Origin: Thermodesulfobacteriota bacterium
GTDB lineage: Bacteria; Desulfobacterota_D; UBA1144; Nemesobacterales; UBA2774
Assembly (NCBI GenBank): GCA_965216785.1
Contig: OZ244197.1
Coordinates: 2,656,001-2,720,000, forward strand
Direction: 5' to 3'
DNA: 64,000 nucleotides
Shown: positions 25,384 through 42,024 of the stretch, one piece after another
Layout: every line of letters begins with the position of its first letter
Position numbering within the stretch: the stretch's first letter is position 1
Notes under the pieces: generated by a model
The model's input: only the letters and a program-made list of their open reading frames with translations
Told to the model about the DNA's origin: nothing
The model's database searches: none
Made by a program: the position numbers and the translations under genes

Positions 25384-25539
25384 AGTTTGGTTTTAATATC
25401 TATAAATCCAACTTAAATCCTTGTTGACATATGGGGTGCTAGACAATTATTGTAATATATTAATATTGTGTTGGTACACATTGGTTACAACTTAAATTTG
25501 ATTGTGCATGAATAAGTAATACTTACATAAGAAGGAGCT

Positions 25540-26265
25540 ATGATTATGAGCAATCAATCAATGGTTATTGGAAATGAATCTGCAAACTGTAGAAAATCTA
25601 ACTGGTGTAGAATCACTACAATTTTATCCATTTTATTACTAGGTATGTATATCGCATCACAGACTGTATTGGCAGCAAACCCGACGGATCCAGAGTGGGT
25701 ACTGAAAGCCAACTACGTAGATGCTTGCAGTTGCGACGTGGCATGCCCCTGTATCTTCGGTCAGCCATCAACTCACGGTTATTGTAAGGGTGCAACATTG
25801 GTGGAGATCACAGAAGGATATTATGGCAAGGTCGACCTAACTGGTGTGAGTGTTCTGGCTGTGTACAACAGTGGCAAATGGATTAAATTTTTTGTTAGTG
25901 AGAATGCAACCAAAGAACAGACAGATGCAGTAGTTGAATTCCTCCCGGTCGCTGAAGGTTTCTTTAAAGCTCCTATCCGCGAAGTAAAGAACCAGCCAAT
26001 ATCAGTATTACGTACAAGTGACAAAGTGAAAATTTCTACTGAAGAGACTCTAATCGAGTTAGAGCAGATACAGAATGCCAACGGAGACCCAATCAAGGTA
26101 CTAGGATTACCTGCTCATGGATTCCCGGGCTTGCCCTATCTTGACCATACACAATATAAAACAGTAACATTGGTACATGATAGTGAAAAGGAAAAATTCA
26201 ATTTTTCTGAGACCAATGGGTACACAGCAAGGATAGATGCTTCTAGCGATTCGAAAGAGCAATAA
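25540..26265 (+). CDS. DUF1326 family protein (Cys-rich, probable metal binding)
   Basis: YVDACSCDVACPC...HGYC...ITEGYYGKVDLTG motif. Confidence 0.8.
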   Translation: MIMSNQSMVIGNESANCRKSNWCRITTILSILLLGMYIASQTVLAANPTDPEWVLKANYVDACSCDVACPCIFGQPSTHGYCKGATLVEITEGYYGKVDLTGVSVLAVYNSGKWIKFFVSENATKEQTDAVVEFLPVAEGFFKAPIREVKNQPISVLRTSDKVKISTEETLIELEQIQNANGDPIKVLGLPAHGFPGLPYLDHTQYKTVTLVHDSEKEKFNFSETNGYTARIDASSDSKEQ

Positions 26266-26374
26266 CTAAAGATCTAAATTACGTGTTTCTACCAAACTAT
26301 TAGATCCAGTCGACTCAAACATCCATTTCTCAACCCTTATACAGGCCTAACCAATTTAGTAAGAGTTACTACCC

Positions 26375-26606
26375 CTATTCTACTATTGAACCCCCAGTAA
26401 CAACATGATAAATTAGATACTTACGCAGGAGGCATATGCATTAAAAGTGTCTAACCATTATCTAACCATTCAATCGTATTTAGTTAATGTGAGGTCTTAT
26501 GCTAGATAATTTATCAAGTGTTAACAGCTCCTTAGCTGACCAAATATTAGCTAATATCTCACTCGTAATGAGCAGGTCATCGGTTCAATTCCGATCGTCG
26601 GCTCCA
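26375..26606 (+). repeat. Right end of unit 2 including att core (copy 2 of the 232-bp direct repeat)
   Basis: Matches 24092-24323; tRNA fragment at 26558-26606. Confidence 0.92.
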
Positions 26607-26713
26607 TTGTTTATAGTAAGTTACACCACATTTAGATACTGGCTCACGGATATTATCTACCCAACTCACTGTTATTCATGCCTACTGAGAATCTTACACG
26701 GGAGGCAAAACTA

Positions 26714-26899
26714 ATGGCTACACTAGTCCACAAGTATAAGAGTTACTATGGGGATTTAATCTATGGCCTATCATTCGGTACCTGTTGTGGAATCGTAAGA
26801 CCAATACCGACACTTTCTGAATGAGGTCTAATAGCTATGGCAGGAGTTTTAGGGATAATTGGGTTACTGGCACTCCGAAGAAGAAATCAAACAGCATAA
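26714..26899 (+). pseudogene. Chimeric remnant: integrase N-terminus fused in frame to an IPTL-CTERM tail with an internal stop
   Basis: Reads MATLVHKYKSYY-GDLIYGLSFGTCCGIVRPIPTLSE*GLIAMAGVLGIIGLLALRRRNQTA*; upstream 26607-26713 is homologous to the integrase leader 16342-16460. Confidence 0.85.
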
Positions 26900-26968
26900 A
26901 CTGAAAGAATAAATCTGATCACACAAACGGGAACAGTACACTCAAACCGATAAAGAAAGATAAGAGCA

Positions 26969-28645
26969 TTATCTTTCTTTGCCCCTCTGCCGCAAATATT
27001 TATCGATATCCTCCACATTCTTTTGGTTAAATTTCTTAAAAGTCGTAAAGCCGTCGCTCGTCATTAAAATATCGGTCCTGTTCCATACGGCTAAATTGAC
27101 ATCCCTGTCCGATGTTGCGGATAAATTGTCTTCGAGCTGTTTCAAAATCTCAGGGGATAGAGTATCTGTACCGATGGTCTCGACTAAAACATACCAAGAT
27201 TCGCCCTTTGGCCTGTGATGAATGTTTATCGGGATAATATTGCTGTATTGTTCAAACTCTCCTAATAACGCTTCATCGATCTCACCCCTCAATCGTTCTT
27301 CCTCCTCTGTAAAGCCTGCGTAAATGTAGCCGGGAAGAAGGTCTCCGCTCGCATCGGAATAGGTAATTTCTTCATTTTTTATAATGAGGCTCATCTTTGG
27401 GTTTTGCATTTTACTTCTCAGGTCCTCCTGAAGCTCCCCTATCTCGCTCTCCGTAAGATTCCTATAGCTCTGTATTGTAGCGACAACGGTCGGCCCGCGG
27501 AGCAGTTCAACATAGTCTACATCTACGAGCGACATACCGTGCCAGTGGGTAAACCTTTCTATAAGCTCTTTCTCGATTACATTCACGGCTTTTTTCCAGT
27601 CGGTAAGCGATTCCTTAAGAAAGAATCCATCGAGGTTCTGTCTGATGACGTTCTCGCCCGACCCAATAGCGCCAACGTCTTGAGCAAGTACATTCCTGAA
27701 TATAAGCTCTGTAGGTTTCTTTGTCTGCTCTTCGATATTCTTCTGCACCGCTTCGACCTGATAGGGCGTTACCGTCCTCGGACTCTTTATATTTGCCAAT
27801 ACGTACAATTTCCCATTTTCCTCGTCGTAAATAAAACCGTCGAGCGATGTTGTATGAAGCTCTATCATTGCTGATTCCAAAATGTTTTTAATGGTGTTGC
27901 TCAAGTACCTCTCCTGGACAATCTCGATAAGTGAGTAGGTAAGGAACACGCATACGGCTAGAAATCCGATAATTGCCAGACCAAAACGCCTGAGCAGGTC
28001 TTTGGTCGAGACCGAGATCCACCACGGGGAAAGGCCTGCAAGCATGAACGTCGTACCGGCAACTAGCAGTATCGACAGGAAATTTGCAAAAAACAGCATA
28101 AAGGAGCCGAATGCCCCGTAGTAATAGCCGAGCGAAACGCATATACCGGTATTTGATAACGGAGGCACAATGGCTGTAGCTATCGCAACGCCGGGGAGAG
28201 CCGGACTCAATTTTTCATCTATCATAGCATACGCCCCTGCAAAACCGGCCAGTACCGCTACCATAAGATCGAGCAGGGTGGGCTTGGTTCTGGCGAGCAT
28301 TTCAGGGGTTGCTGCAAGCTCCAGAGGCAAAAATCCGATCAGACCCGCAGAAACAATCGCCAGTATGGCACCCAGAATTACTGAGCGCAGGGCTGTGGCC
28401 AGAAGACGGGGTTTGCCTATGACTATGCCAAGGGTGATGCCTATTATGGGGGTCATAAGAGGCGAAACCAGCATAGCTCCGATAATGACCGCAGTGCTGT
28501 TGGATATAAGACCGAAGGCAGCGATGAGTGAAGCAGTGGCCAGAAGAGCGTAGAATCTAAAGCCCGGCTCTGACCCGGTACTGATCTCCTCAATTATTTG
28601 TTCTTTACGCTGCTCAGATACCCTGGTAAAAAATTTAGTAATCAT
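26969..28645 (-). CDS. DUF389 (TIGR00341-like) membrane protein with a large C-terminal soluble region
   Basis: STAVIIGAMLVSPLMTPI, RTKPTLLDLMVAVLAG, LPGVAIATAIVPPL. Confidence 0.88.
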   Translation of the reverse strand: MITKFFTRVSEQRKEQIIEEISTGSEPGFRFYALLATASLIAAFGLISNSTAVIIGAMLVSPLMTPIIGITLGIVIGKPRLLATALRSVILGAILAIVSAGLIGFLPLELAATPEMLARTKPTLLDLMVAVLAGFAGAYAMIDEKLSPALPGVAIATAIVPPLSNTGICVSLGYYYGAFGSFMLFFANFLSILLVAGTTFMLAGLSPWWISVSTKDLLRRFGLAIIGFLAVCVFLTYSLIEIVQERYLSNTIKNILESAMIELHTTSLDGFIYDEENGKLYVLANIKSPRTVTPYQVEAVQKNIEEQTKKPTELIFRNVLAQDVGAIGSGENVIRQNLDGFFLKESLTDWKKAVNVIEKELIERFTHWHGMSLVDVDYVELLRGPTVVATIQSYRNLTESEIGELQEDLRSKMQNPKMSLIIKNEEITYSDASGDLLPGYIYAGFTEEEERLRGEIDEALLGEFEQYSNIIPINIHHRPKGESWYVLVETIGTDTLSPEILKQLEDNLSATSDRDVNLAVWNRTDILMTSDGFTTFKKFNQKNVEDIDKYLRQRGKER

Positions 28646-28769
28646 ACCGTTTATCGCACATGCTATATGATATAATAATTATGAGATTCAACATAATGCA
28701 CACTTTTAATAATTACATAGGTGTCATCTAATTCAATACTAAGAAGGTTAAAATCGCTCAAAAATTCAA

Positions 28770-29459
28770 ATGGGGACGGAAAATGATCAGGGACTTAATC
28801 TTGCTATAATACTCGAAGGTTTCGAAGGCTTCATCCTTATTATAGTTTGTACATTATTCTGGCCGATTCTACGCTATATTCTCCGAAACATAGGAACAAC
28901 CCTAGAAGAAAGAGAAAGGGAGTGGCCCGGAGATACACTACTTGAACGAGCTGACCGGACTTCGACACGCGCAATTAATATAGACACTAACCCCCATAAT
29001 ATTTGGCCCTGGATTGTACAGATAGGCCGAGATAAAGCGGGGTTCTATTCTTATGAATCTGTTGAGAACCTAGCCGGACTCGATGTAAAGAACCGGGAAA
29101 CAATAGTACCCGAATTCCAGACTTTGAGAGAGGGGGAATTTATATCCCTTCATCCAAATGGTCAGGGTGTCTATGCGGATAAAATAAAACCTAATGAGCA
29201 CCTTATATGCAGGGACTGGAAAGATGATTCAAAGATCGAGGAGCTAAGACCAGTATCCAAAAAAACATGGTCATTTTACATAGTTCAAGTCAATACAGAT
29301 AGATCACGGCTCATTATAAGATCATGCGAAGAGACATTGCGCCCAGATTTCCTTCACGTTCTCGTAACACTTTTATTTATGGATCCTATTGATTTTGTGA
29401 TGGAGTATAAAATGCTTCGTACAATCAAACGGCTGACCGAGGGTTGTGAACTAACATGA
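28770..29459 (+). CDS. Hypothetical protein, SRPBCC-like conserved family
   Basis: TRAINID....IWPWIVQIGRDKAGFYSY..ENLAG and FVMEYKMLRTIKR motifs. Confidence 0.7.
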   Translation: MGTENDQGLNLAIILEGFEGFILIIVCTLFWPILRYILRNIGTTLEEREREWPGDTLLERADRTSTRAINIDTNPHNIWPWIVQIGRDKAGFYSYESVENLAGLDVKNRETIVPEFQTLREGEFISLHPNGQGVYADKIKPNEHLICRDWKDDSKIEELRPVSKKTWSFYIVQVNTDRSRLIIRSCEETLRPDFLHVLVTLLFMDPIDFVMEYKMLRTIKRLTEGCELT

Positions 29460-29532
29460 AATTTCTCCAAAAAACTGAACATAAGAATAAGGGCTTTAGA
29501 GCACCTAACATAAACAATATCAGATAGTTAAA

Positions 29533-29610
29533 TTAGAGTGCATCACGCTTACGATCGGTTCACAAAACCACTCAATTTTATCCCTTCTTAGCTAGTATCC
29601 AGAACACTTA
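29533..29610 (+). repeat. Dispersed ~125-128 bp repeat family, copy 1
   Basis: TTAGAGTGCATCACGCTTACGATCGGTTCACAAAACCACTCAATTTTATCCCTTCTT; similar to copies at 31.9, 32.0, 34.9, 36.7 and 36.9 kb. Confidence 0.8.
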
Positions 29611-29683
29611 CAGACGCCATTAACTGAGACAGATAAAAGGGAAACAGTACTATACCTTCTATATCCTGTTTTGACCTATAAAC

Positions 29684-29851
29684 TCATTCGACCACTCTAT
29701 TATCTTTAGAATTATAGTTATTACGGGCTTTTTCTATTGCACTAGAATGTGTCCTACCCCATTTATCTATAGAAATAAATATGTTTTCTAGTGATTTCCC
29801 AATATCGGTTAGTGAATACTCAACCCTGGGTATTATTTCAGGGTAGTGCTT
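29684..29851 (-). pseudogene. C-terminal fragment of a second HxlR-family regulator
   Basis: Translates as KHYPEIIPRVEYSLTDIGKSLENIFISIDKWGRTHSSAIEKARNNY...*; no start codon before an upstream in-frame stop. Confidence 0.75.
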
Positions 29852-29886
29852 GCAGTCTAATGCTAACTTTTCTCTAGAAGTTTAGT

Positions 29887-30234
29887 CTATCTTTTATCAT
29901 AAGCTGCACGTGAGTGTTCTATCTTGGAGTAATTGGTTGCTGCCCACTCAAAGAGCGGCAACAGTATTTCCACTATTTGCTGGCCGCGCACAGTTAGTTC
30001 ATAAGAAACCGCAACCGGCGGGCCGGGATCGACTGAACGAGTTAAATAACCATCACGTTCCAGGCTGCGCAGTTTCTCGGACAGTACTCTTTGCGAAATG
30101 CCACCGAGTTTTCGTTTGATCGCCCCAAACCGCAACGCACCATCCGAAAGCTCGGTAAGTATCAGTATTTGCCATTTACTCGTGATCCCAACAATCACTT
30201 TCCGGATCGGGCAGTCAGCTACGTTTTCGGACAT
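29887..30234 (-). CDS. HxlR family winged-helix transcriptional regulator
   Basis: DCPIR...SKWQILIL..L....RFG.IKR.L.GISQRVLSEKLRSLERDG; CAGGAGG RBS before ATG at 30234. Confidence 0.9.
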   Translation of the reverse strand: MSENVADCPIRKVIVGITSKWQILILTELSDGALRFGAIKRKLGGISQRVLSEKLRSLERDGYLTRSVDPGPPVAVSYELTVRGQQIVEILLPLFEWAATNYSKIEHSRAAYDKR

Positions 30235-30354
30235 AGTTACCTCCTGCATACTTAGTGTTAAAACAGTTACTACTTGACACTTAGTATGAAAGTAATACCA
30301 TATTAACTTCAGAAAACAAAATCGAGACAGGCGCAAAAAAGGAGGTGTTCAGTC

Positions 30355-31122
30355 ATGTCAAATAAGGAAAAAGCAGTTGCAATTGTTGAAGCCTTTGAAA
30401 CAGGAAGCTCTAAAGTATTGGACTATATAAGTGATGAAAAATACATTCAGCACAACCTGGGTTTCCCGGACGGGAAAAATGCTATAGTTGGTTTTTTTGC
30501 AGATAAGCCAACAGGCATTACTGTCAAAATACATAGAGTAATAGAGGAAGGTAATACGGTAGCTCTACACAGCACTTACGGAGGTGTTTGGAACAACGGA
30601 ACACCACAGGTGGCTTTTGATGTATTTAAGTTTGAAAATGGCTTGATAGTAGAGCATTGGGATAATCTGCTTGATGTTGCTCAACCTAATCCAAGTGGTC
30701 GTACCCAGACAGATGGACCTACGGAAGTGAATGATTTGGAACAGACCGAAGCCAACAAAAAAGTGGTTACCCGCTTGATGAATGAAGCATTTTTAGGAAA
30801 CGATTACAGCAAAATTACCGAAATGATTAGCCCTAAAAAGTATATTCAACATAACCCTCAAGTTTCTGATGGACTAGATGGGTTTAACGATTTTCTCGCT
30901 GATTTAGCTGAGCAGAATACCACGATGAGCTATTCAAGCTCTCATCAAATCATAGCTGAAGGAGATTTTGTGCTCACTTTAGCCGATGGGACGTTTGGCG
31001 ATCAGGAAGTAGCTTACTATGACCTATTTCGTCTCGAAAACGGATTAATTGTAGAACATTGGGATTTGGTGTCTGAAATACCACCAAAGTCTGAATGGCA
31101 GAATCAAAATGGAAAGTTTTAG
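30355..31122 (+). CDS. Tandem SnoaL/NTF2-like domain protein
   Basis: Two repeats of YIQHN...DG and D.F.(F/L)ENGLIVEHWD. Confidence 0.88.
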   Translation: MSNKEKAVAIVEAFETGSSKVLDYISDEKYIQHNLGFPDGKNAIVGFFADKPTGITVKIHRVIEEGNTVALHSTYGGVWNNGTPQVAFDVFKFENGLIVEHWDNLLDVAQPNPSGRTQTDGPTEVNDLEQTEANKKVVTRLMNEAFLGNDYSKITEMISPKKYIQHNPQVSDGLDGFNDFLADLAEQNTTMSYSSSHQIIAEGDFVLTLADGTFGDQEVAYYDLFRLENGLIVEHWDLVSEIPPKSEWQNQNGKF

Positions 31123-31757
31123 TGAATAATGACATAGAGCTTGTATATGTAATGGATCCGCATTGTGGGTGGTGTTTTGGATTTGGAAAAGTAATTTTAG
31201 ACTTGTTTGAAATATACAAAGACAATTCGTTGGTCAACTTTGACATTAAGCCCGGAGGATTGTTTTATCCTGCAATTGAAATCGAAGAGGGCTTTGCTGA
31301 TGGCAAGCGCCCAATTGCCAAGCGTATCGAAGAGTTGGCAAAAGTGAAGTTTTCTGAAAATTATTTCACCAAAATATTAGGAACCGGAAGTATACTAGAT
31401 AGCGAACCTCCAGCCAGAGCTATTTTATCTATTAAGAAAATAACCCGAGATATCCTTGTTCAATTTACTGAAAGATTACTTGAAAAAGAATTTATCTTTG
31501 GCAAGAACACTTCATTTGACGAAACTATTTTTGAATGTATCAAAGAGTTCAAAGTTGAAGAAGCAGCGTTCGAAAAACACTACAATTCAGCCGAAATGAA
31601 GCAGCAAGTGATTTTAGAATTTCAACAAGCTCGTAGTATGGTGACAGGTTTTCCTGTGCTTTTTGTGAAACACAAGAATCAATTAACAAAACTGGCAGGG
31701 GGTTATGCACCAAGAGAACGATTGGTAAAAAAAATAGAAGCTTTATTGGTAGAGTAA
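31122..31757 (+). CDS. DsbA family (thioredoxin-fold) protein
   Basis: YVMDPHCGWCFGF and VTGFPVL cis-Pro loop; probable GTG start at 31122. Confidence 0.85.
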   Translation: MNNDIELVYVMDPHCGWCFGFGKVILDLFEIYKDNSLVNFDIKPGGLFYPAIEIEEGFADGKRPIAKRIEELAKVKFSENYFTKILGTGSILDSEPPARAILSIKKITRDILVQFTERLLEKEFIFGKNTSFDETIFECIKEFKVEEAAFEKHYNSAEMKQQVILEFQQARSMVTGFPVLFVKHKNQLTKLAGGYAPRERLVKKIEALLVE

Positions 31758-31829
31758 GCTAGACTTCATCTGATATTTGCCATCATCATTTTGTAACCAC
31801 CGGGGAGAAATTGAGTTGACCTTGTTTTC

Positions 31830-32110
31830 CTTTGATTCTTTTACAGCATTCAGAGTATAAATAAACTAAGAAGTGCCATAAAATAATCAGCATTGACAGT
31901 AGATTATACTAGAGCACATCAGGCTTACGTTATGTTCACAATACCACTAATTTATACCCCTTCTTCTACAGCATTCAGGCTATAAATGTGTCAGGAAGAA
32001 CTAATCAGTATAAATAAACCATGATAGCAACATAAACTAGAGCCAATCACACTTACATTGTAATAACAATATCGGAAATTTATATCCCTTCTTTTCTAGA
32101 ATCCGTAAAT
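31830..32110 (+). repeat. Dispersed repeat family, tandem copies 2 and 3 (128 bp apart) plus an upstream partial unit
   Basis: CTAGAGCACATCAGGCTTACGTTATGTTCACAATACCAC at 31909 and CTAGAGCCAATCACACTTAC at 32037. Confidence 0.8.
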
Positions 32111-32390
32111 CTTAAATACGTAGAAAGTAATAACATCTTTAATATTTCCTTGTTCTTGCCCACCGGAAACACCATGTCTTATGTAAGGTATTATGACAAC
32201 CACATACGAACATAAATGTAAAGAGATTGAAAAATGTGAATGAAATTTAGAGTTTACGCGCACTACCCAATTGGCATGCTATATGCAGCCAACAATATTG
32301 GCGGTAAGAAATCTGAACAATGTTTTTTTAATTTAAATATGAGCAATGTATTGTAGCTGTGGATGATTGTTCAACGAGAGGTTTTGTATT

Positions 32391-32957
32391 ATGAACGAGA
32401 AAACAAAAAAAACAGATTGGAAACAGAAAGTTATCCACGAATTTCTAGAATACTGGATAAATGTCATTTATTTAGCTCTTTTTTTCGGTGTATTTATATC
32501 GTACCGAAGATTAATATTGGCCCAGTATCAGATCAGCTACATTGAGTACGGAGTTAGTATAATCGAAGCGCTGGTATTAGCCAAAATCATAATGATAGGA
32601 ACTGTTTTGAGAATAGGCCAAAGGTTTCAAGAAATGCCTTTGATTATTCCAACAATATTCAGGTCGTTTATTTTTAGCATTTGGGTTGCTATCTATAAGG
32701 TGCTTGAGCATACAGTTGTGGGGCTTGTGCATGGGAAAGGTCTGACGGGTGGGATCAATGAGCTTATAGGACGGGGCGGCAATGAATTGGTTGCGGGGTG
32801 CCTTGTCATATTTTTCGCTTTTATCCCATTCTTTGCAGTCAAAGAATTAGGGAGGGTGATGGGTGAGGGTAAATTAGCTGAACTGTTTTTACGAAGAAGA
32901 GCCGGTAAGGAGTCCAATTTCGATACAGCAACTTATTCTCACACTGACAAAGGATGA
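32391..32957 (+). CDS. Hypothetical membrane protein (about 4 TM)
   Basis: Hydrophobic segments; ALVLAKII and AFIPFFAVKELGRVMGEGKL motifs. Confidence 0.7.
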   Translation: MNEKTKKTDWKQKVIHEFLEYWINVIYLALFFGVFISYRRLILAQYQISYIEYGVSIIEALVLAKIIMIGTVLRIGQRFQEMPLIIPTIFRSFIFSIWVAIYKVLEHTVVGLVHGKGLTGGINELIGRGGNELVAGCLVIFFAFIPFFAVKELGRVMGEGKLAELFLRRRAGKESNFDTATYSHTDKG

Positions 32958-33050
32958 GAAAACTGTTGACGAAGGTATTGAAAGTAATGATTCAATTATG
33001 AGTGAAAAGTTTGAAAATACCACCATATCCTACATAGGAGGAAGATAATC

Positions 33051-34199
33051 ATGGCTAAAACAAAGAAGGCAAAGACGGTACCCCTCAATTGGAACGAGGT
33101 GTACTACACCAATTGTCCCTTGGTGTCTGCCAGCAATGTCGATCAGGAGCTGGGTTGGACCAAGGAGGAGTACAAGAAGATTGGTGTCCAGTACGCGTAT
33201 TTCCGCTCGCGCCGCGAGAACAACTGGTACCCGCACTACGTCCACAACCTCGACAACCTCATCCGCTTCGGCGGTCTGTTCCCCCCCATCCACGTTCATG
33301 CGGACATCCGCAGAACCAGGCTACTGGGGGCGACTCATGCTCCACGCGAAGGTGGCTGTATGATGGTGCGGACTCGGGACGACATCTACCGGATGATCGA
33401 CCTCAAGGGCAGAAAGATTGGTCTCACCAAGAGCCTAAACACCATCAAGAACGACTGGTGGCGCATCCAGGAGGAACAAGGTATAGAGCTGATGCTCCGA
33501 ATGAACGGCATGAGCCGTGACGATGTGGAGATCGTGGAGTTCCCCTACCCGGATGACTGGTACGAAAACCCTGAGATGTTAGAGCCCATCGAGAACCCAT
33601 CCGAATTACAGCTCAAGCGGGACCACAAGCATGACTTGGCCTTCCGTCCCCTGGAAACGGCGTTATTGGAGGGAGTCGTAGATGCGATTTATACTCAAAG
33701 TAAGGTCTTCCAACATCTTCAGGAGGCGACGGGCAAACTCAAGGCCATTGAGGACCTGTCCAGGTATCCGGACTGGACTCTGCAGGTGGCCAACATTCCC
33801 GCCGTCATCACCTGCACTGACGAGATGGCCGAGAAGCACCCCGAGCTCGCCGTTACTTTCATGAAAGGTATGATTAAGGTGGGGCGATGGTCCAATGAGC
33901 ACAAGCACGCAACTGCGGCGATCCTGAATAGGCAGACGTACTACTTGGACGTCGAGGATACGTATAGGGGCATAAAGGACATAGACATGGTGCCCAACCT
34001 GTCGCCCCAGAACCTGGCAGCCATTGGAATCGGAAAAGACTTCATGCTTAGCCACGGCTACATCAAGAACGACTTTGATGTGCATGAATGGGCTGCACCG
34101 GAGTTTCTCGAAACTGCAGCGAAGGAGCTGCTAGAGGAACGCTGGAAAAAAGTAACCATGGAAAAGCTGCCCGAGATGTCTACGTTACGGCTCGGGTAG
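33051..34199 (+). CDS. DszB-like desulfinase (periplasmic-binding-protein fold enzyme)
   Basis: YYTNCP, PHYVH and IRFGGLFPPI match the Cys/His/Arg-Gly motifs of DszB; no signal peptide; C-terminal FDVHEWAAPEFL. Confidence 0.72.
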   Translation: MAKTKKAKTVPLNWNEVYYTNCPLVSASNVDQELGWTKEEYKKIGVQYAYFRSRRENNWYPHYVHNLDNLIRFGGLFPPIHVHADIRRTRLLGATHAPREGGCMMVRTRDDIYRMIDLKGRKIGLTKSLNTIKNDWWRIQEEQGIELMLRMNGMSRDDVEIVEFPYPDDWYENPEMLEPIENPSELQLKRDHKHDLAFRPLETALLEGVVDAIYTQSKVFQHLQEATGKLKAIEDLSRYPDWTLQVANIPAVITCTDEMAEKHPELAVTFMKGMIKVGRWSNEHKHATAAILNRQTYYLDVEDTYRGIKDIDMVPNLSPQNLAAIGIGKDFMLSHGYIKNDFDVHEWAAPEFLETAAKELLEERWKKVTMEKLPEMSTLRLG

Positions 34200-34227
34200 T
34201 AATAGTTTATAGAAACAGGAGGATATA

Positions 34228-34635
34228 ATGCCCAAGACAGCTATGGATCTAATCACAGAAGCCGGGGCTCAGATTGAGAACCTATCACCTATGGATGCCT
34301 CGAACGAGATCGCCTCAGGAAATATGATCGTGGTCGATGTCCGCGAACCGATGGAATGGGAGCAGCACATCGAGGGTGCGTTCCAGATACCGAGGGGATT
34401 GCTTGAGTTCGTTGCGGACCCTGCATGCGCGCCAATCCTGCCGCCGAGTCTGAAGTTCGATCTGGATCCGACCCGCCGGGTTATCGTATACTGCAACACG
34501 GGAGGACGTGGTGTACTCGCTGCGCTTACGCTGAAGACAATGGGCTTCGAGCATGTCGCCAATCTCGAAGGTGGGTTCATTGCCTGGAAGGAAGCCGGTC
34601 TGCCAGTCGCCGAGCACCATGCGGCTTTGTTATAG
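34228..34635 (+). CDS. Rhodanese-like sulfurtransferase
   Basis: VDVREPMEW, IPRGLLEF, VYCNTGGRG, NLEGGFIAW. Confidence 0.9.
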   Translation: MPKTAMDLITEAGAQIENLSPMDASNEIASGNMIVVDVREPMEWEQHIEGAFQIPRGLLEFVADPACAPILPPSLKFDLDPTRRVIVYCNTGGRGVLAALTLKTMGFEHVANLEGGFIAWKEAGLPVAEHHAALL

Positions 34636-34849
34636 GTTTCCAATAGAGTGGGATTGAGTAGTTGTACTGATCTTCTGGTGAGCTTCTTTACGCTTCGAAT
34701 TTAGATTTTTTAAAATATGAACGGGGCTGAGAACGTGAGTAACTGTCAGTTAAGCACCCGGAAACCAGTCCACCTTTAGAGTAAGAATTTTGCACTTTGT
34801 TCTCTAATGAATTGCTCGATGCTCTTTTTTTATACTAGCTGCACGGATA

Positions 34850-34897
34850 AACATTCAACAATTCCGGCAACTTAAACTAGAGCCAATCACACTTACA
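34850..34897 (+). repeat. Dispersed repeat family, copy 4 (truncated after the core spacer)
   Basis: AAACTAGAGCCAATCACACTTACA identical to the copy at 32034-32057, then similarity stops. Confidence 0.75.
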
Positions 34898-34991
34898 CTC
34901 GACAAGAGTCACTTTTTTTGCCAGCATAAGAAAATTTAGAACACTAAATTAGCTCATGTATACTCATAATTAAAATAAACAGGAGGAATCC

Positions 34992-36596
34992 ATGAAACAA
35001 TTAGCTACGGCATTTTTATTCATTACAATCATGCTAACGTCGGTCTCTGCCGCTTCAGAGGAGAACAATACAAACGACAAAGATTTTTTGAAAGACTATT
35101 CTATGTCTAAAAAGCATAGCCATCAGGGTTACGAACATTGGTCATATGAGGATAGCGTTGATATCGAAGAATTAAGGAAAAAGAAAGGGAAAATTTACTC
35201 AAATGCGGATGAAATTCGCGCAGTACTCTCAGGTGGTGTGAAAATAAATCCTGAGACCGGTGAGGAGCTTTGGAAAGAAGGGCTAATGTTCGAAGGCATA
35301 GAGCCTATGCCACATATGGTCTCCGCCGCCAACTGGTTCCCTCGCACAGAAGAAGTTCAACCTAACGAAATGCGGATTACCTTTATGGGGACATCACCTT
35401 TGATACGTCCGGGGCAAATGAATACCTCAGTGTATGTTGAATTAGGTAATGGCTCAAGCTTTGTTTTTGATATAGGCGAAGGTTCTGTAGCCAACTATAT
35501 CGCTGCTGGTGTAGCGCTGAATGAATTGGACAAAATTTTTATCACACACCTCCATGTTGATCATTTTGGTTCACTGCCGTACGTATATGAGTTTGGCGGC
35601 TGGAATGGCCGCTGGGAAAAACCAATGACTGTTTACGGCCCGTCAGGAGCCACTCCTGAGTATGGGACGAAAGCCATGGTTGAAGGAATGCTAAATATGT
35701 TGAAATGGCACACAGACGCGTTTGATGTGTTCCCCGCTGGCAATGACATTGATGTCGTTGAGTTTGACTTCAATGATGACGGGGGTGTAATTTACGACGA
35801 AGACAATGTAAAAATAATTCATTGGCGTCGAAGCCATGCAAAAGATGGGGCTTCTGGTTATCGTCTCGATTGGAAAATCAATGATAAGGAATCGTTATGT
35901 TTCGTCTGGACAGGCGATGGACGCCCAAATGAGTTAGATATAAAATATGCAAAGGGATGTGATGTGTATGTAACAGAGCTTCAAACTGAGACATTTGGTG
36001 TATCTTCCATCGTACAGGGTGTACCGCCTTTCTTGGCAAGATATACAGTTGATACACATCACACACCTGCTTATGCAGCAGGCTACTTAGCATCCAAGAT
36101 CGAACCTAGGATACTAATGACAACTCATATGTCCTTTGATCCTTATTTAAACGAGGAAACAGTTGCGGAGATTAGAGAGCATTGGCAAGGACCATACCAC
36201 TTCGGTGCGCCTGACGGGATTGTCGTCAATGTAACACCGGATAAAATATGGGTTCGAGAAGGTATATTACCCGACTTTCCCAACACAAGAGCTCCTCAGT
36301 TTGATATGAGAGATGGATCGGACTTCCGTGTACCGATGCCAAAAAAGCAGCGCGTTGATATTCAGCAGCAGGAAATACGTGATCTCGAGATTGATCCGAA
36401 ACTTTACTATCCGGAAGGTTATCATCCTGAGTTAATGCCTGAATGGCCGGTAGAACGTGATATTGTAATCCCTGCACAAAATGTCCCTGAGTCAATGAAA
36501 CAAGGCATGGGAGCAAAACAAGAGTATATGGACAAGGCACGTAAGACACATGGATTACCCCCTAAATCCGTAACGCGACCATCAAATGACCAATAA
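34992..36596 (+). CDS. Secreted MBL-fold metallo-hydrolase (RNase Z/arylsulfatase-like)
   Basis: Signal peptide; ITFMGT, FDIGEG, THLHVDH, WTGDG, HHT motifs. Confidence 0.82.
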   Translation: MKQLATAFLFITIMLTSVSAASEENNTNDKDFLKDYSMSKKHSHQGYEHWSYEDSVDIEELRKKKGKIYSNADEIRAVLSGGVKINPETGEELWKEGLMFEGIEPMPHMVSAANWFPRTEEVQPNEMRITFMGTSPLIRPGQMNTSVYVELGNGSSFVFDIGEGSVANYIAAGVALNELDKIFITHLHVDHFGSLPYVYEFGGWNGRWEKPMTVYGPSGATPEYGTKAMVEGMLNMLKWHTDAFDVFPAGNDIDVVEFDFNDDGGVIYDEDNVKIIHWRRSHAKDGASGYRLDWKINDKESLCFVWTGDGRPNELDIKYAKGCDVYVTELQTETFGVSSIVQGVPPFLARYTVDTHHTPAYAAGYLASKIEPRILMTTHMSFDPYLNEETVAEIREHWQGPYHFGAPDGIVVNVTPDKIWVREGILPDFPNTRAPQFDMRDGSDFRVPMPKKQRVDIQQQEIRDLEIDPKLYYPEGYHPELMPEWPVERDIVIPAQNVPESMKQGMGAKQEYMDKARKTHGLPPKSVTRPSNDQ

Positions 36597-36670
36597 CGCA
36601 TGAAAAAAAGAATGCCGTTTTAAGTGCTGGCACTTGTGCGGCCATGATATAAAACAGTTTCTAATTCCAT

Positions 36671-36698
36671 AAAAGGGGAGCTTCGACTCCCCTTTTTT
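36671..36698 (+). terminator. Rho-independent terminator
   Basis: AAAAGGGGAG-CTTCGA-CTCCCCTTTTTT. Confidence 0.8.
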
Positions 36699-36742
36699 AT
36701 TGCCAGAAAACATAATAATTGTAAATAATTACATCACCCAGA

Positions 36743-36950
36743 TTAAGTCCACATCACGCTTACGTTATGTCCACAATACCACTTATTTATACACCTTCTT
36801 AACTAGCAATAAGAACACATAAAAGCACAGAAGTGCATCGAAATAATCAACAATTACAGCCAGTGAAACTAGAGCCAATCACACTTAGGTTATGTTCACA
36901 AAACCACTCATTTTTACCCCTTCTTTTGTAGTATTCAGTACACATTAAAG
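36743..36950 (+). repeat. Dispersed repeat family, tandem copies 5 and 6 (125 bp apart)
   Basis: AGTCCACATCACGCTTACGTTATGTCCACAATACCAC at 36746 and AGAGCCAATCACACTTAGGTTATGTTCACAAAACCAC at 36871. Confidence 0.8.
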
Positions 36951-37058
36951 ACCGAATTAAAACTGGTATTAAGTATCCACTCTAGCAAATGAATGCATCC
37001 ATTTTAAGCCTTTTATAAACTCAAGTTTATGTAGGTGAATCTATAAGAGCGATAAATT

Positions 37059-37961
37059 ATGAAATCAAAGTTCCATTCAGGTGAAATAGCCGTTCAGACC
37101 AAGGCCGGAGTCCAAGATATCGCGCAAAGGGTCTCTAGAGTAATTGGTACAACCTTACCGCGTAATGCCCAATATTTCCTGGAGATGCAGAGAATGGCAA
37201 TCATCGGATCATTGGATGATAGCGGCAATGTTCAGGCTAGGGTTTTAGTAGGCAATCCAGGGTTCATGGAGGCTTTAGATGAGAAGACTATTCGTATTGA
37301 GGCCGACCCGAGCAGTGGTGATAATTTATTTGAAAACCTTAAGAACAAAAATGAAATTGGCCTGTTAGCGATCGAGCTTGCCGCAAGGCTCCGGCTAAAA
37401 GTAAAAGGCAAGGCTAGATTGGAAGATAGCAGCATCTTTATAACACTCGAGCGAGCCTATGCTCAATGTCCTAAGTACATACAAGCACGCGAAGCAGACT
37501 CGGCGCCTCCTAAGCCGCGATCAGAACAGAGCGTCCAACATTTTGATAGCTTAAGCGACGATCTCAAGAATTTCTTAGCGGCGTCCGATACGTTTTTTAT
37601 AGCCTCTTATCACGAGGATACCGGAATAGACGTTTCACACAGGGGAGGCAGCCCCGGCTTTATCAAAGTTTTGAACAATAAAAAGATAGTCTTCCCCGAC
37701 TACCCAGGTAACAGTATGTTCAACACCTTGGGAAACATTTCCGTAAACCCTGGAGCAAGTCTATTGTTCATAGACTTTAATAACGGGAGTACCGTAAAAC
37801 TTAGTGGAGAGGCGAAAATTATTTGGGACGATGAGCGGGTTTCGGCATTTGAGGGGGCTGAACGCATAATCGAATACGATATAAGCGCTGTTGCGCTTAA
37901 CCGGGGCGCAGTGCCGCTAAATTGGCAATTCCTTGAGTATTCCCCATTTAATCCACTCTAG
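37059..37961 (+). CDS. Pyridoxamine 5'-phosphate oxidase-family FMN-binding protein (tandem domains)
   Basis: FHSGEIAVQ, QCPKYIQAR, DVSHRGGSPGF, PDYPGNSMFNTLGN. Confidence 0.88.
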   Translation: MKSKFHSGEIAVQTKAGVQDIAQRVSRVIGTTLPRNAQYFLEMQRMAIIGSLDDSGNVQARVLVGNPGFMEALDEKTIRIEADPSSGDNLFENLKNKNEIGLLAIELAARLRLKVKGKARLEDSSIFITLERAYAQCPKYIQAREADSAPPKPRSEQSVQHFDSLSDDLKNFLAASDTFFIASYHEDTGIDVSHRGGSPGFIKVLNNKKIVFPDYPGNSMFNTLGNISVNPGASLLFIDFNNGSTVKLSGEAKIIWDDERVSAFEGAERIIEYDISAVALNRGAVPLNWQFLEYSPFNPL

Positions 37962-38057
37962 ATTTGCGGCTGTTCTGCATAAACGGACGATTCTTATATT
38001 TGCTATCACAATACGCCCTACTACTTTTATATATTGGGATATGTTATTTTAATATTT

Positions 38058-39803
38058 ATGGCGCGTTTACTATCCGTAAATGTATCGCTTCCAAAGGAGA
38101 TAACCCACAAAGGGAAGAAGATTACCACCGGCATATTTAAAGAACCCGTAGAAGGACGCGTCAAAGTTAATAAACTGAACCTTGAGGGTGACGGGCAGGC
38201 TGATTTGATAGGGCACGGGGGTACTTTTAGAGCCATCAATGTCTATTCATATGACAACTATGCTTTGTGGGCAGAGGATTTAAATAGAGACGACTTCAAG
38301 TTTGGGCAATTCGGTGAAAATTTCACTGTAGAAGGTATGTCCGACTACGAGATCCACGTCGGTGATAGATTCAAAATAGGGAGCGCGCATTTTGAAGTGA
38401 CTCAGCCTCGAGTCCCTTGTTATAAACTGGCGATCAAGATGGGAGAAGAGGGTTTTTACAACAAAATCCTTTCAAGCGGGCGGCTCGGTTTTTATTTCAG
38501 AGTTATAGAAGAAGGAGAAGTCGGGGCTGACGATGTCATTGAAAAAGTGTATGCAGACCCTACAGCAATGACTATAGATGAAGTCAACAGTTTGATGTAC
38601 TTCGATAAGGATAACTATGAGGGGTTTGAAAAGGCCCTTAAAATAAAAGCGCTCTCGCCCGGTTGGAAAACCACTTTTGAGGACCGTCTTGCAAAGGCGG
38701 AGTTGTCGGAGAGAACCAAAGACAAATACATGACGTTGACTGTCAGCAAAAAAGTACCTGAAAGTAAAACTATTACATCTTTCTATTTAGTTCCGGACGA
38801 AGGGCAGCCCTTACCCTCTTTTATGCCCGGGCAGTTCTTACCTTTGAAGCTCGATATACCGGGGCAGTTTAAGCCCGTTTTCAGGACCTACTCAATCTCA
38901 GACAGCCCGCACAAGGATTACTATAGGCTGACAATCAAAAGAGAGCCGCCCCCGCCTGACCGTCCGGACCTATACCCGGGTGTCTCTTCCAATTACTTCC
39001 ATGATCAGGTAGAACCCGGAACGAACTTACTTGCCAAAGCGCCGAGAGGTAAATTCTACCTAGACACTAATATTGATAATCCGGTGGTTTTACTGAGCGC
39101 GGGTGTCGGTCTAACTCCGCTTGTCAGCATGCTTAACTCGATCATAGATTGCGGATCCAAACGCCAAGTATGGTTTATCCACGGAGCAAGAAACAGTAAC
39201 GAACACGCCATGGGTGAGCATATTCGTAAAGTAGCTGAGGAAAATGACAACGTCCACATTCACGTAGCTTACAGCAAGCCGCTAAAAGACAATATCGAGG
39301 GCCGAGACTATGACAGTAAAGGGCATGTGGACTTAGAGCTTTTAAAGAGAGTGCTTCCCGGAAACGAAGCTGAATTTTATCTTTGCGGACCTCCTCTGTT
39401 CATGAAATCGCTTTTTAATGGACTCCTTGAATGGAAAGTCCCGGAATATTGTATTAACTATGAGTTTTTCGGCCCCGCCTCACTACTTAATGATAGAGAA
39501 AAAGTCTCTACTCCCAAGCGGGCAGCGGAGGCAATGGACTGCTCGAGTGAGATTGAGGTGGATTTTTCTGCGTCAGGTATTAAATCTAACTGGAACCCCT
39601 CATTTGAAAGCATATTGGATCTGGCGGAAGCAAACGGATTAAGCCCTGACTATAGCTGCCGCTCGGGGATTTGTCATACATGCATGTGCAGAATGCAAAG
39701 CGGGGAAGTGGAATATGTTGAGGAGCCACTCGACCAGCCGGAAGAAGGCTGCGTGTTAATCTGTGTAGCCAGACCTAAGAGTAATGTTGTGATTGATATT
39801 TAA
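38058..39803 (+). CDS. MOSC / 3-alpha / FAD-NAD oxidoreductase / 2Fe-2S ferredoxin fusion
   Basis: FGENFTV, TQPRVPCYKL, RTYSIS, AGVGLTP, YLCGP, CRSGICHTC...C; probable ATG start at 38058. Confidence 0.9.
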   Translation: MARLLSVNVSLPKEITHKGKKITTGIFKEPVEGRVKVNKLNLEGDGQADLIGHGGTFRAINVYSYDNYALWAEDLNRDDFKFGQFGENFTVEGMSDYEIHVGDRFKIGSAHFEVTQPRVPCYKLAIKMGEEGFYNKILSSGRLGFYFRVIEEGEVGADDVIEKVYADPTAMTIDEVNSLMYFDKDNYEGFEKALKIKALSPGWKTTFEDRLAKAELSERTKDKYMTLTVSKKVPESKTITSFYLVPDEGQPLPSFMPGQFLPLKLDIPGQFKPVFRTYSISDSPHKDYYRLTIKREPPPPDRPDLYPGVSSNYFHDQVEPGTNLLAKAPRGKFYLDTNIDNPVVLLSAGVGLTPLVSMLNSIIDCGSKRQVWFIHGARNSNEHAMGEHIRKVAEENDNVHIHVAYSKPLKDNIEGRDYDSKGHVDLELLKRVLPGNEAEFYLCGPPLFMKSLFNGLLEWKVPEYCINYEFFGPASLLNDREKVSTPKRAAEAMDCSSEIEVDFSASGIKSNWNPSFESILDLAEANGLSPDYSCRSGICHTCMCRMQSGEVEYVEEPLDQPEEGCVLICVARPKSNVVIDI

Positions 39804-39908
39804 TACGCACACAAATCTTAAAACACTATCCCAAGAAAATAACGACTCTGCGCCTAGATGTACTGCTCCCCAATAGTGCAATGATAATTAATTACCGGAT
39901 AAATGTGA

Positions 39909-40664
39909 TTAAATGGAAAAGTTCAAGCCTAATATTACATTTGTGATCTCGGGATCGTTTATTCCGAGCTCAAGCCCCCATTCAATTGCGATACCAGAAA
40001 TCGGCGCATAGCCGGCGGAGGTCCTTATAATAGCGGGGTATTCGTTATCAGGCGTGTTTAAATCTCCTGAGAGTTCTAAACTGTATATAATTTCTTCAAT
40101 AAACAAAGGCATCTCCATCTCGAGCCCGTAAGTGAAATTATGTTCAAAGCGCTGCTCTGAAATCTGATCGTTTAGAGTGATATATCCGATGCTGGCCTGA
40201 AGAGACATAACGGACAAATGTTTTCTTAAACCGAGTACATGCTCAAGCTCATGGATTTGAGAAACCGCTCCCTCATTACTATAATCTATGGGAACCAGAG
40301 CCGAAGTTTCAGCTACAATCCCCGGCAGATGAGCACCTTCAGCCAGAATAACTAATTCTGCGGATAATCCTGTATCTCCGAAACCAAACCCCGAAACCGC
40401 GTATAATGGGTCAATGGGAAGAAACGGGGAATCAACCTCGGGTTCAATTAAACTGTTTACACTATATTTAAGAGACCACGTGGTTTGATAACTGCTGCTG
40501 TGGCTATTGACTGTACTCTCATTTCCTATACTCAGTCCGGGCTCAATATTCCCGTAAAACGTCCCACCCTCGGAAGCATCGGCGTACAGTATATGGAAAT
40601 TTAGACATAATACCGTAACTACAAGAAAAACTGTTTTAGCGATGATCATCCCGGTAAGGCTCAT
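39909..40664 (-). CDS. Putative outer-membrane beta-barrel ('transporter' family-like) protein
   Basis: Signal peptide, GFGDTGL motif, alternating beta-strand pattern, C-terminal LGLNFSI. Confidence 0.5.
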   Translation of the reverse strand: MSLTGMIIAKTVFLVVTVLCLNFHILYADASEGGTFYGNIEPGLSIGNESTVNSHSSSYQTTWSLKYSVNSLIEPEVDSPFLPIDPLYAVSGFGFGDTGLSAELVILAEGAHLPGIVAETSALVPIDYSNEGAVSQIHELEHVLGLRKHLSVMSLQASIGYITLNDQISEQRFEHNFTYGLEMEMPLFIEEIIYSLELSGDLNTPDNEYPAIIRTSAGYAPISGIAIEWGLELGINDPEITNVILGLNFSI

Positions 40665-40704
40665 AGTATTCCCCCTTGTTATGCTTTAAGGCGCAGACGG
40701 AGTT

Positions 40705-42024
40705 TTAGAACCCCTCTTCGTTTTGAATTATCTCGCCAAGTATAGCTTCCACCTCTTCAGTCTTGCTTTCGTGAATGTGCGGATTAACGGCTGCTGAAAG
40801 CCCGAGTAACTCTTTTGCTTTCTTCACGTTATCCTGTCCATAGAGAATCATGCCGGCGTGATAATACAAAGTAGCGTCTTCCGTGCCGAGTCTTAGCGCC
40901 TTGCGCATAGCCTCTTCAGCACCTGCCATGTCTCCCATTTTGTAGCGGACCCATGCGAGCGTGTCATATGCATATATATCCTCTGTATCTTCCAGATCGT
41001 ATAGCGCAAGCTCGACCGCCCTGTCCAAATTGATATTTTTATCCGCGTAATGGAGCGCAAGCTCGCGCGAGTGGCCCTTAATGCCCTGGCGCTGATATAT
41101 CTCATACTGTGTCTCTGCTTTTCTGTAATGCTTCTTCGATCTCGCTGTATCACCGAGCTCGTGGTAAATGTCCCCTAACGCTAGGTAGTACTCGGGCTTA
41201 GGGCTTACGTTTATTGCACGACGGTAATAAGAAGCGGCCTTTCCATATTCACCCCTTTGAAAGTAAAGCTCGCCCAGATGCTCAAGCGCAAGGTAGTAGT
41301 CCTCGAACATCACTAGCGCATTACGGTAGTGCAGCTCCGATTTTTCTGGTTCGCCACAGTCGAAATACAGCGATCCCAGCATCACATCGGCCCATGCCAT
41401 GTTCTCCTCGGGCAGATCAAGCCTCCTGGACAAATCTATAGCCTGCTCCATTGCGCTAATTGCCCCCTCCGTGTCACCGGTGAGGAACCTTATGCGCGAG
41501 ATCCTGGTGTAGGAATCAAAACCCGGGTCTAAATACAGCATTAGCGCATATGCTTTTAGAGCCTCGTCGTAATCGCCGAGCTCAAGGTACGCGTCTCCTT
41601 TAAGCGCGTATGTAGCCGCCTTATCCGGCCTTAATTCAATTGCTTTGTCGGCATTGGTAAGCGCTCCCCGGAAATCGTGCTTGTAGGAGCTTACTCTTCC
41701 CAAGTGTAGGTAAATCTTATAGTCGCCGGGGGTTAGTTCCGAAGCTTTGATCAGTAGCTTCTCGGCTTTTTTATAATTACCGATACCGCCTTCTTCCCGG
41801 CCCTTTTGTATGTATAGCTCCCCGAGCTTTAGATAGTGATAATAGTCCCGGGGGTCCTTCTCCATCTTCTCCTCATAACTTTCTATCAGCTTATCGGTAG
41901 GGCTTTTCGCCTTATTTTGTTTCTGATCTTTATGGCTGTGGCCTACACCGTGGCCGTTTGATAAAGAAGGGGTAAGTAATATTACGAAAGCTATCAGAAT
42001 TAGTATTGCGGGGAATGTTTTCAT
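40705..42024 (-). CDS. Secreted TPR protein associated with DUF4331
   Basis: Signal peptide, His-rich N-terminus, many TPR units, DIYAYDTLAW. Confidence 0.85.
   Translation of the reverse strand: MKTFPAILILIAFVILLTPSLSNGHGVGHSHKDQKQNKAKSPTDKLIESYEEKMEKDPRDYYHYLKLGELYIQKGREEGGIGNYKKAEKLLIKASELTPGDYKIYLHLGRVSSYKHDFRGALTNADKAIELRPDKAATYALKGDAYLELGDYDEALKAYALMLYLDPGFDSYTRISRIRFLTGDTEGAISAMEQAIDLSRRLDLPEENMAWADVMLGSLYFDCGEPEKSELHYRNALVMFEDYYLALEHLGELYFQRGEYGKAASYYRRAINVSPKPEYYLALGDIYHELGDTARSKKHYRKAETQYEIYQRQGIKGHSRELALHYADKNINLDRAVELALYDLEDTEDIYAYDTLAWVRYKMGDMAGAEEAMRKALRLGTEDATLYYHAGMILYGQDNVKKAKELLGLSAAVNPHIHESKTEEVEAILGEIIQNEEGF

Follow-up and report, generated by a model that had tools for sequence, protein, structure and literature searches.

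The locus and the question

What are the repeats between 29533 and 36950 of the 64,000-nucleotide stretch analysed here (the window), and how did the small groups of genes that they separate come to lie there? The stretch belongs to the 3.12-Mb chromosome of an uncultured Dadabacteria-like bacterium (genome G000, 92% complete by markers; relatives carry further G numbers), whose proteins find their matches in Candidatus Dadabacteria / Thermodesulfobacteriota. An earlier interpretation made from the letters alone, called the sequence-only reading below, had described six repeat cores and taken them for recombinase sites parting cargo modules. All six cores were found where it had placed them, on the forward strand and between genes. 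Our analysis bears out that the repeats are site-specific junctions which part mobile gene modules: they lie in islands and in one orientation, synteny breaks within their cores, units without cargo occur, and the copy at 34879 is a hybrid. The repeats are recombination junctions bounding small gene modules, and comparison of their sequences indicates that these modules are quite probably non-autonomous and moved in trans by a large serine recombinase (LSR) of the family of P0121, an enzyme encoded in the related genome G003.

Distribution and anatomy of the site

A search of the chromosome with a profile built from the copies, as the sequence-only reading had proposed, returned the five full window copies at E-values of 1.6e-20 to 4.6e-16 (self-matches, the profile being their own) and 15 further copies at 2.5e-17 to 1.1e-3, while the best E-value in the reversed genome, used as control, was 0.65. 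With separate matrices for the left and the right part, a total of 26 sites at eight loci was obtained, namely five clusters of two to six sites and three singles. Clustering in islands and shared orientation, both named beforehand as support, were found, with the orientation being uniform within all five multi-site clusters (P about 4e-6 if random). Nor did the array arise through misassembly, since one contig each of runs X3 and X6, two runs of the likely source sample, spans window positions 26577-42000 with zero differences.

According to a model made from sequence only, sites occur in 14 of 33 genomes of the family, this one counted. By genus, carriers amount to 2/2 (g1), 8/10 (g2), 2/10 (g3), 1/1 (g6), 0/7 (g5), 0/1 (g4), and 0/1 (g7), and of 18 genomes from other families one matches the model, weakly. 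A pattern scan of metagenomes yielded four loci; the viral contigs and plasmids scanned contained no site, and the recombinases there were only distant ones. No Rfam family matches the repeats, and DNA folding revealed no shared hairpin (one of five copies below z -2).

Each site is made up of two parts, a left half of some 45 bp and a right half of some 75 bp, which are joined at a CT or GA dinucleotide. We gathered 88 distinct site rows from this genome and its relatives, a few of them false or misregistered, which by score comprise 32 full sites, 35 right halves only, 14 left halves only, and seven intermediate rows; the central dinucleotide is CT in 61, GA in 10, TT in five, and another one in 12. 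Core and inner-arm positions are far more conserved than neighbouring positions. No left half contained a full match to an integration host factor (IHF)-like motif (0/48).

The 11-8-11 register assigned to the cores earlier is off by one, since the true dyad axis lies one base further left, on the central dinucleotide. For the 32 full sites, collected across many genomes, the complementarity of the arms amounts to 0.54 if the central CT is taken as axis, to 0.39 with the axis assigned earlier, and to 0.11-0.32 with 17 other axes. In the window sites alone the registers barely differ (26/54 for the CT axis vs 25/66), and two window copies fit the earlier register at 7/11. As judged by cross-scoring of arm matrices, left arms and reverse-complemented right arms form one shared pool, as for a single homodimeric enzyme: arms of the other side scored +6.9 and +3.9 bits, shuffles -10.7 and -11.9. 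For these matrices, of 44 and 66 arms, 10 of the 88 rows were set aside as doubtful or misregistered, while for the comparisons of axes, of right halves with P0121 and of arms with XerCD all rows above the score cut-offs were kept.

Two tandem pairs, with periods of 128 and 125 bp, were confirmed. The 125-128 bp had been taken for the length of the repeat, which does not hold: they are the sum of one right half and one left half and no repeat unit of their own. The accompanying idea that tandem copies are empty slots stands to the extent that cargo-less units are indeed seen, and the two pairs are modules without cargo.

Filled and empty alleles

Strains differ in the presence of blocks bounded by sites, and the breaks fall in the core. 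Contigs of runs X1 and X2 (two samples of one study, with flanks about 99% identical to this genome) join window position 29540 directly to 36752, skipping 7,211 bp. Thirteen letters fit both sides of this joint; in sites 1 and 5 they span the inner arm and the spacer. The contigs of both runs also skip an 18,525-bp island in dprA, and here only three letters fit both sides, namely spacer positions 3-5 with the central GA included. Synteny breakpoints inside the core, expected by the sequence-only reading, are therefore present in the form of a 13-letter and a 3-letter joint.

At dprA the flanks of the strains are about 99.7% identical (two differences in 679 bp). Reconstructed from the letters of this genome at the joint coordinates, the empty form reads NKEVF like most intact relatives, and each flank of the filled form is one spacer base off the empty form, on the element's side. 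The whole host spacer is kept in neither flank and there is no target duplication. This pattern, in which nothing is duplicated and no whole spacer is transferred, is the one left by a crossover at a central dinucleotide. In G074, five copies of another left-half variant agree over about 40 bp and diverge directly past CT, with four different triplets following the core. The dprA joint and these five left halves show what is expected of LSR attachment (att) sites, that is crossover at a central dinucleotide without target duplication. Run X1 also contains a back-joint resembling a circle of the dprA island (33-letter side, two other differences, 90% likeness), a weak hint which was not counted.

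Half-sites also mark joins to host genes, namely comM, dprA, and the promoter of an ABC transporter. The 18.5-kb island that splits dprA in this genome (G000:C1:2997111-3015636) carries no recombinase; it starts with a right half alone and ends with a left half alone, and dprA is intact in relatives. The comM gene is joined to a right half after its GGHNLL codons in G003 and G022, and in G050 and G001 a right half is found at comM-like copies of the GGHNLL spot. Directly upstream of the ABC-transporter gene, one spot bears three different right halves in this genome, in G001, and in metagenome locus L170. When intact comM genes were scored with the arm matrix, the used position ranked first of 1,494 in 15 of 16 genes and second in the remaining one, and comM therefore looks like the native target.

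In the genomes studied comM is split at two positions by two LSR families, after GGHNLL and about 20 codons later (split loci: G000:C1:861952-895655; G003:C9; G004:C5; G018:C4; G024:C1). In this genome dprA and comM are both split, which amounts to two interrupted competence genes. The resident comM LSR was rejected as the enzyme of the sites: it uses another comM position, and its junctions reach at most 10/22 as inverted repeat.

Organization of the array

The array in the window comprises the following features.

28770..29547, forward strand: segment upstream of site 1, whose left half forms its end; contains a 229-aa gene without Pfam match
29505..29620, forward strand: full junction site 1, core CT 29548-29549, right-half arm variant ATCGG; here begins the block missing from the sister strain
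29541..36751: 7,211-bp block of modules 1-3 plus cargo-less unit 1, absent in runs X1 and X2
29550..31923: module 1, 2.4 kb, GC 0.39, three genes
29887-30228, minus strand: HxlR regulator (module 1)
30355-31122: double SnoaL-like protein (module 1)
31128-31757: DsbA-like protein, below the Pfam cut-off (module 1)
31881..31998, forward strand: full junction site 2, core CT 31924-31925
31926..32051, forward strand: cargo-less unit 1, a right half joined directly to a left half, resembling a gene-less cis-mobilizable element (microCIME)
32009..32125, forward strand: full junction site 3, core CT 32052-32053, second right-half type (TTGTA)
32054..34891, forward strand: module 2, 2.8 kb, with identical spacers on both flanks
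32391-32957: 188-aa protein without Pfam match (module 2)
33051-34199: NMT1/THI5-like protein, GC at third codon positions (GC3) 0.73 (module 2)
34228-34635: rhodanese (module 2)
34849..34897, forward strand: left-half-only (attR-like) junction, core CT 34892-34893, no right-half likeness past the spacer
34894..36758, forward strand: module 3, 1.9 kb, one gene and a hairpin
34992-36596: 534-aa hydrolase of metallo-beta-lactamase fold (module 3)
36670-36698: terminator-like hairpin (module 3)
36716..36833, forward strand: full junction site 5, core CT 36759-36760, left half of the second type; here ends the block missing from the sister strain
36761..36883, forward strand: cargo-less unit 2
36841..36958, forward strand: full junction site 6, core CT 36884-36885
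36886..39803, forward strand: probable next module, two genes
37059-37961: gene of the pyridoxamine-phosphate-oxidase family (probable next module)
38034-39803: MOSC/FAD/2Fe-2S gene (probable next module)

The copy at 34879 retains left half and spacer only and is the hybrid junction for which it had been taken, and the contrast in base composition between modules, likewise described before, shows in GC3 values from 0.32 to 0.73 for 10 genes. A gene similar to 37059-37961 also follows a site in G009 (L312). Relaxed half-site scans did not find outer boundaries of the array left of the 28770-29547 segment or right of 36886-39803.

As to further cargo and neighbours, IPTL-CTERM genes are frequent module cargo, and one left-half variant is repeatedly preceded by the terminator shared by IPTL-CTERM tails; in the window, such tails with the shared terminator lie at 23846-23941, 25218-25313, 26795-26890, and 49902-49997. 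Window positions 16267-26606 hold tandem islands, with a tRNA-Thr, an integrase (16461-17501), and copies of the tRNA 3'-end at 24275-24323 and 26558-26606. In runs X1 and X2 the 5' part of the tRNA joins at 26558, which suggests that these islands are absent in the sister strain. The stretch 26318-26606, which ends in a tRNA-Thr fragment, has an 86% identical copy at G000:C1:1606810-1607098, located in a tRNA-Ser island and adjoining another site array.

A candidate large serine recombinase

P0121 is a 527-aa LSR of G003 with Resolvase, Recombinase, and Zn-ribbon domains. In G003, the comM island starts with a right half and ends with the P0121 gene, whose last codons encode the left arm; close homologues have similar terminal residues and are variable beyond them. 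The two 22-bp arms of this element, i.e., the gene end left of the core and the island start right of it, are inverted-complementary at 19/22 positions, compared with a best value of 13/22 elsewhere in the gene over 1,560 positions. The element ends in G003 therefore display the inverted repeat of about 22-25 bp per arm that characterizes an LSR attP. Likewise, a cognate LSR gene abutting the site in an autonomous element, as known for such enzymes, is found in G003 and similarly for four relatives of P0121 in G074.

The right halves of the sites resemble the corresponding P0121 arm. Over 72/72 right halves the mean is 13.7/22, while shuffles average 5.8 and reach at most 9.5; the right halves in the window match at 16, 17, 11, 16, and 16 of 22 positions. 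Positions +19 to +23 of this arm form its outer motif, which is the conserved ACCAC tail mentioned by the sequence-only reading. In 16 comM targets a similar outer motif stands at +14 on the left-hand side, as opposed to +19 in the right half. For LSRs, an outer motif 5 bp nearer to the core in attB than in attP has been described (PMC3783163; statements on this and the other sources cited below refer to passages of them). The distal motif of the left half finds its best match in the P0121 gene with 21.8 bits, the next one having 2.4 bits, displaced 15 bp outward. All 28 aligned left halves lack these 15 bp, which hold the outer motif.

The genomic context of P0121 homologues was seen in G003, G069, and G074. 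G074, from another family of the order, has six P0121-family hits, four of which have their 3' ends in four different host sequences, with the cores CT, GA, TT, and CT; compared with the right half of that genome these ends match at 13-16/22. It holds two right halves, one of them followed by umuDC, and umuDC genes are also present in the G003 island. In addition, G074 contains a second left-half family with six copies, all ending at core CT (L583, L585-L589).

Proposed mechanism and its difficulties

Given that no cognate enzyme was found in G000, the modules appear non-autonomous. In the mechanism that we propose, the right half would be the P' arm of a P0121-family attP, and the left half would be the 3' end of the LSR gene carrying the P arm, minus the 15 bp that hold the outer binding motif. 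One or several modules would excise as a circle via crossover at two cores, and the circle would integrate at a 2-bp core in comM (the best natural match), in looser look-alike targets, or in an existing junction. The asymmetric core would hold all modules in one orientation. Repeated rounds would build arrays, and a unit stripped of all cargo would be a 125-128 bp tandem pair. As no close LSR relative is present in the genome, the modules would move only upon the visit of an autonomous element, or might now be fixed. It is likely that the sites were stacked at several chromosomal loci by a visiting LSR rather than by the host Xer enzymes, and the shared loss of 15 bp in the left arm may explain the reuse of junctions.

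A more far-reaching version can be offered only tentatively. The arrays might form a chromosome-wide LSR gene-capture network in which a 15-bp deletion at the end of a multi-targeting LSR gene, with the loss of the outer P-arm motif, would free the half-site from the one-way attP x attB rule and junctions would be repeatedly entered and left. Each visit of a helper would then redistribute modules of one to three genes over eight or more loci, comM and dprA among them.

Several observations weigh against an LSR of the P0121 family as the mover. Regarding the alleles, both empty forms come from contigs of a single study, and the 13-letter window joint is, by inspection, the longest identity between sites 1 and 5, so that a microhomology deletion is possible; lying inside this identity, the window joint alone does not discriminate. 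Regarding the sites, the full copies in the window reach only 5-8/22 as self inverted repeat, with a left half lacking the outer motif, and a full site composed of a P'-like right half and such a left half is outside the standard attP x attB rule. The 5-bp shift of the outer motif is confined to the left side of comM, the right side giving no signal. The distal left-half motif matches the gene end in G003 and none of four gene ends in G074. The three bases right of CT are conserved and the two left of it variable, which also fits a tyrosine recombinase with one-sided homology. In five short units a GA core is paired with a neighbouring core that is CT or a shifted variant, although both ends should share a core, and the used position in dprA ranks only 3rd to 124th of about 1,060 by the arm matrix (21 genes).

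Regarding the enzyme, of 101 genomes examined from the order only three were found to have P0121, and G000 is not among them; there, a profile search returned two distant LSRs, 24-25% identical and at other sites. No LSR was found by profile in the site-rich genomes G001, G002, and G009 (80-93% complete). The direct link to an enzyme consists of one whole element (G003) plus fragments in G074, and the comM island of G022 has the right half, no LSR, and another end without a left half.

Alternative explanations

The sites could instead be recombined by a tyrosine recombinase with a 6-8-bp overlap tolerant of one-sided mismatch, the best candidate being a catalytic-domain-only enzyme of 208-213 aa. 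Arms of 9 bp around an 8-bp centre suit tyrosine recombinases, and such an arrangement together with the one-sided conservation of the spacer fits here. Two of the three copies of this enzyme in G000 lie within 200 bp of a site, and at three of 11 loci (at least 60% identical) the right-half start scores 12-41 bits, with a null 99th percentile of 4.2. The other eight loci, however, have no clear site, the conserved palindromes upstream of the gene are no more arm-like than shuffles (p 0.16-0.93, 11 loci), and the enzyme was not found in G001, G002, and G009. Moreover, a crossover within three letters at dprA, with the host spacer whole in neither flank, speaks against an overlap of that length, and the 19/22 match to the end of the LSR gene would be left unexplained. 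We consider a tyrosine recombinase unlikely to move these modules.

The three copies of the short recombinase (G000:C1:870935-871561, 1163412-1164038, and 1289416-1290057) are 82-88% identical to each other. They lack an N-terminal binding domain, have a conserved palindromic upstream region, and often lie on islands with an LSR; about 100 close clusters exist in the protein database, and passages of 10.1101/542381 contain no class for such a short enzyme. A 289-aa protein of tyrosine-recombinase fold (G000:C1:1318854-1319723, minus strand, L013), located beside a 5S-rRNA-like stretch and an rpoD-like gene, was rejected as the enzyme, its catalytic Arg being replaced by Ser and both His motifs altered. 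It occurs in 28 of 32 genomes of f1 and seven of 11 of f7, site-free genera included, and in none of the other families searched, and judging from these features it is probably a domesticated DNA-binding protein. Other tyrosine and serine recombinases fetched from relatives (loci L398-L478) had no adjoining site.

A second possibility, which shares the LSR origin and differs only on present activity, is that the sites are inactive scars of old LSR elements and that, with no dedicated enzyme involved, the arrays are now altered solely through recombination between copies, guided by homology or microhomology. This would account for the failure to find a cognate LSR in G000, for the low identity of the 16 full copies (only 42-80% over 105 nt), and for the several right halves that are cut short or interrupted by IS3-like elements, and the window joint does fall within the longest shared stretch. 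The 3-letter dprA joint, with flanks about 99.7% identical, cannot have been guided by homology, and the strong conservation of core and inner arms relative to their surroundings speaks against scars. We regard this explanation as distinctly unlikely. IS3-like insertions inside the right half were located at L270:4553 (G003) and L310:8628 (G009).

The sequence-only reading had pointed to host XerC/XerD. These might act as at Acinetobacter pdif sites or at cer, and XerC- and XerD-like genes are present, so that no visiting enzyme would be needed. Three right arms in the window indeed match the host XerD arm at 8/11. The host dif itself (G000:2550768, at the switch of the FtsK-orienting polar sequences, KOPS) nevertheless has a 6-bp spacer, only 16 of 72 right halves open with the XerD-type TTATG, left halves match the host XerC arm at a mean of 4.8/11, and the arm matches to host dif average 4.8/11 and 5.4/11. 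Distinct XerC and XerD arms with a 6-bp spacer, and the alternating orientation typical of pdif, were not found (five of five clusters being co-oriented), the arms are interchangeable between sides, and the crossover is at the central dinucleotide. Scans for canonical dif sites in G000 and 45 relatives gave nothing above control. Recombination by XerC/XerD is very improbable for these sites, and a TTATG-type arm should be taken as weak evidence for XerCD. The integrase at 16461, also proposed as a candidate, has its own att copies at tRNA-Thr, and those regions match the right-half consensus at best at 12/22, which does not exceed an unrelated control. The suggestion of an integron-like system has likewise to be dropped: neither an attC-like hairpin nor a consistent fold was seen, five tyrosine recombinases scanned are far below the integron-integrase cut-off, and the modules carry divergent genes and terminators.

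Finally, a CT core without target duplication recalls IS110, and the 125-bp gene-less units are reminiscent of miniature inverted-repeat transposable elements (MITEs), but the idea that the halves are ends of MITEs or of insertion sequences (IS) of IS630, IS5, IS110, or IS200 type is barely credible, given no IS110 (PF01548), IS200 (PF01797), or IS630-type (PF13358) transposase found in G000 (IS5 transposases were not searched), no target duplication at dprA, no consistent hairpin, and no Rfam family.

Comparison with known systems

The array is not a staphylococcal cassette chromosome (SCC), a pdif array, or an integron. To call the system possibly undescribed was nevertheless an overstatement, as integrase-less att-bounded modules and gene-less micro-units are known from SCC, Dehalococcoides, and Streptococcus. 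In the ssrA islands of Dehalococcoides, the LSR DsiB (about 540 aa) has a 3' end that overlaps the att site and a variable C-terminus; tandem islands are parted by att repeats, and 15 islands without integration genes were read as cis-mobilizable (PMC3146451). The end of the P0121 gene similarly overlaps an att arm, with homologues varying past it. In contrast to the single target ssrA and the 20-bp direct repeat of those islands, eight loci with several unrelated targets and a 2-bp core are involved here, the modules measure 0.1-3 kb, and the left arm is partly deleted.

SCC elements are moved by LSRs, their half-sites are degenerate inverted repeats around a central GA, and the target lies in a coding frame; in composite SCC, internal att sites part tandem units, among them units without ccr (PMC13739063). 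The central dinucleotide, a target inside a coding frame, tandem units, and units without recombinase are shared by the present system. SCC itself has the single target rlmH, CcrAB/CcrC enzymes, and elements of mostly tens of kb, compared with comM, dprA, and other targets here, and the resident LSR scores 161 bits at a Ccr cut-off of 900, with no Ccr-type enzyme above it.

Streptococcal cis-mobilizable elements (CIMEs) are recombinase-less and tandem, with both att ends kept; those with cargo measure 1.2-13 kb and the gene-less microCIMEs 130-220 bp (PMC7563491), to which the gene-less units of 125-128 bp found here are similar. The modules of the window likewise have both att ends, and no recombinase domain was detected among the genes of 28770-39803 (conjugation genes were not searched). 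CIMEs sit at single target genes of integrative and conjugative or mobilizable elements (ICE/IME), beside a mobilizer, whereas no helper was found in or near the array and no cognate LSR in the genome. The modules fit the definition of CIMEs except for the tandem helper element.

Multi-targeting LSRs are known (PMC10083194; PMC11472951), including clusters with several attB targets around a dinucleotide core (PMC10083194). The magnesium-chelatase (comM) gene is the target of 12.4% of site-specific LSRs, with an enrichment of competence genes (PMC10083194). P0121 differs in having no DUF4368 match, and the LSRs described there belong to autonomous elements, not to networks of non-autonomous modules; the cluster of P0121 may already be contained in the att-site tables of that study. 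Acinetobacter pdif modules have XerC and XerD arms, a 6-bp spacer, and alternating orientation, and are plasmid-borne (PMC13141974). They resemble the present modules in that small sets of adaptive genes lie between recombinase sites and the enzyme acts in trans, and differ from them in each of those four properties. In the literature covered, which excludes most subscription papers, nothing was found that deals with sites of this kind in Dadabacteria or with LSR-derived modules forming a network over several loci.

Significance

What distinguishes the system is the number of targets in one chromosome, the very small size of the modules, two targets that are competence genes, and the shared 15-bp loss in the left arm. 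For this uncultured lineage the finding describes a way of gathering accessory genes, with integrase-less modules stacked at many chromosomal sites and two competence genes knocked out. It yields a candidate multi-targeting LSR together with about 80 natural junction variants, a likely attP, and a preferred attB. The directionality of LSRs also becomes testable, namely whether the loss of one outer binding motif lets product junctions be reused. If the tentative idea of a chromosome-wide capture network is true, it would be for serine recombinases what integrons and dif modules are for other enzymes, but would lack a fixed platform.

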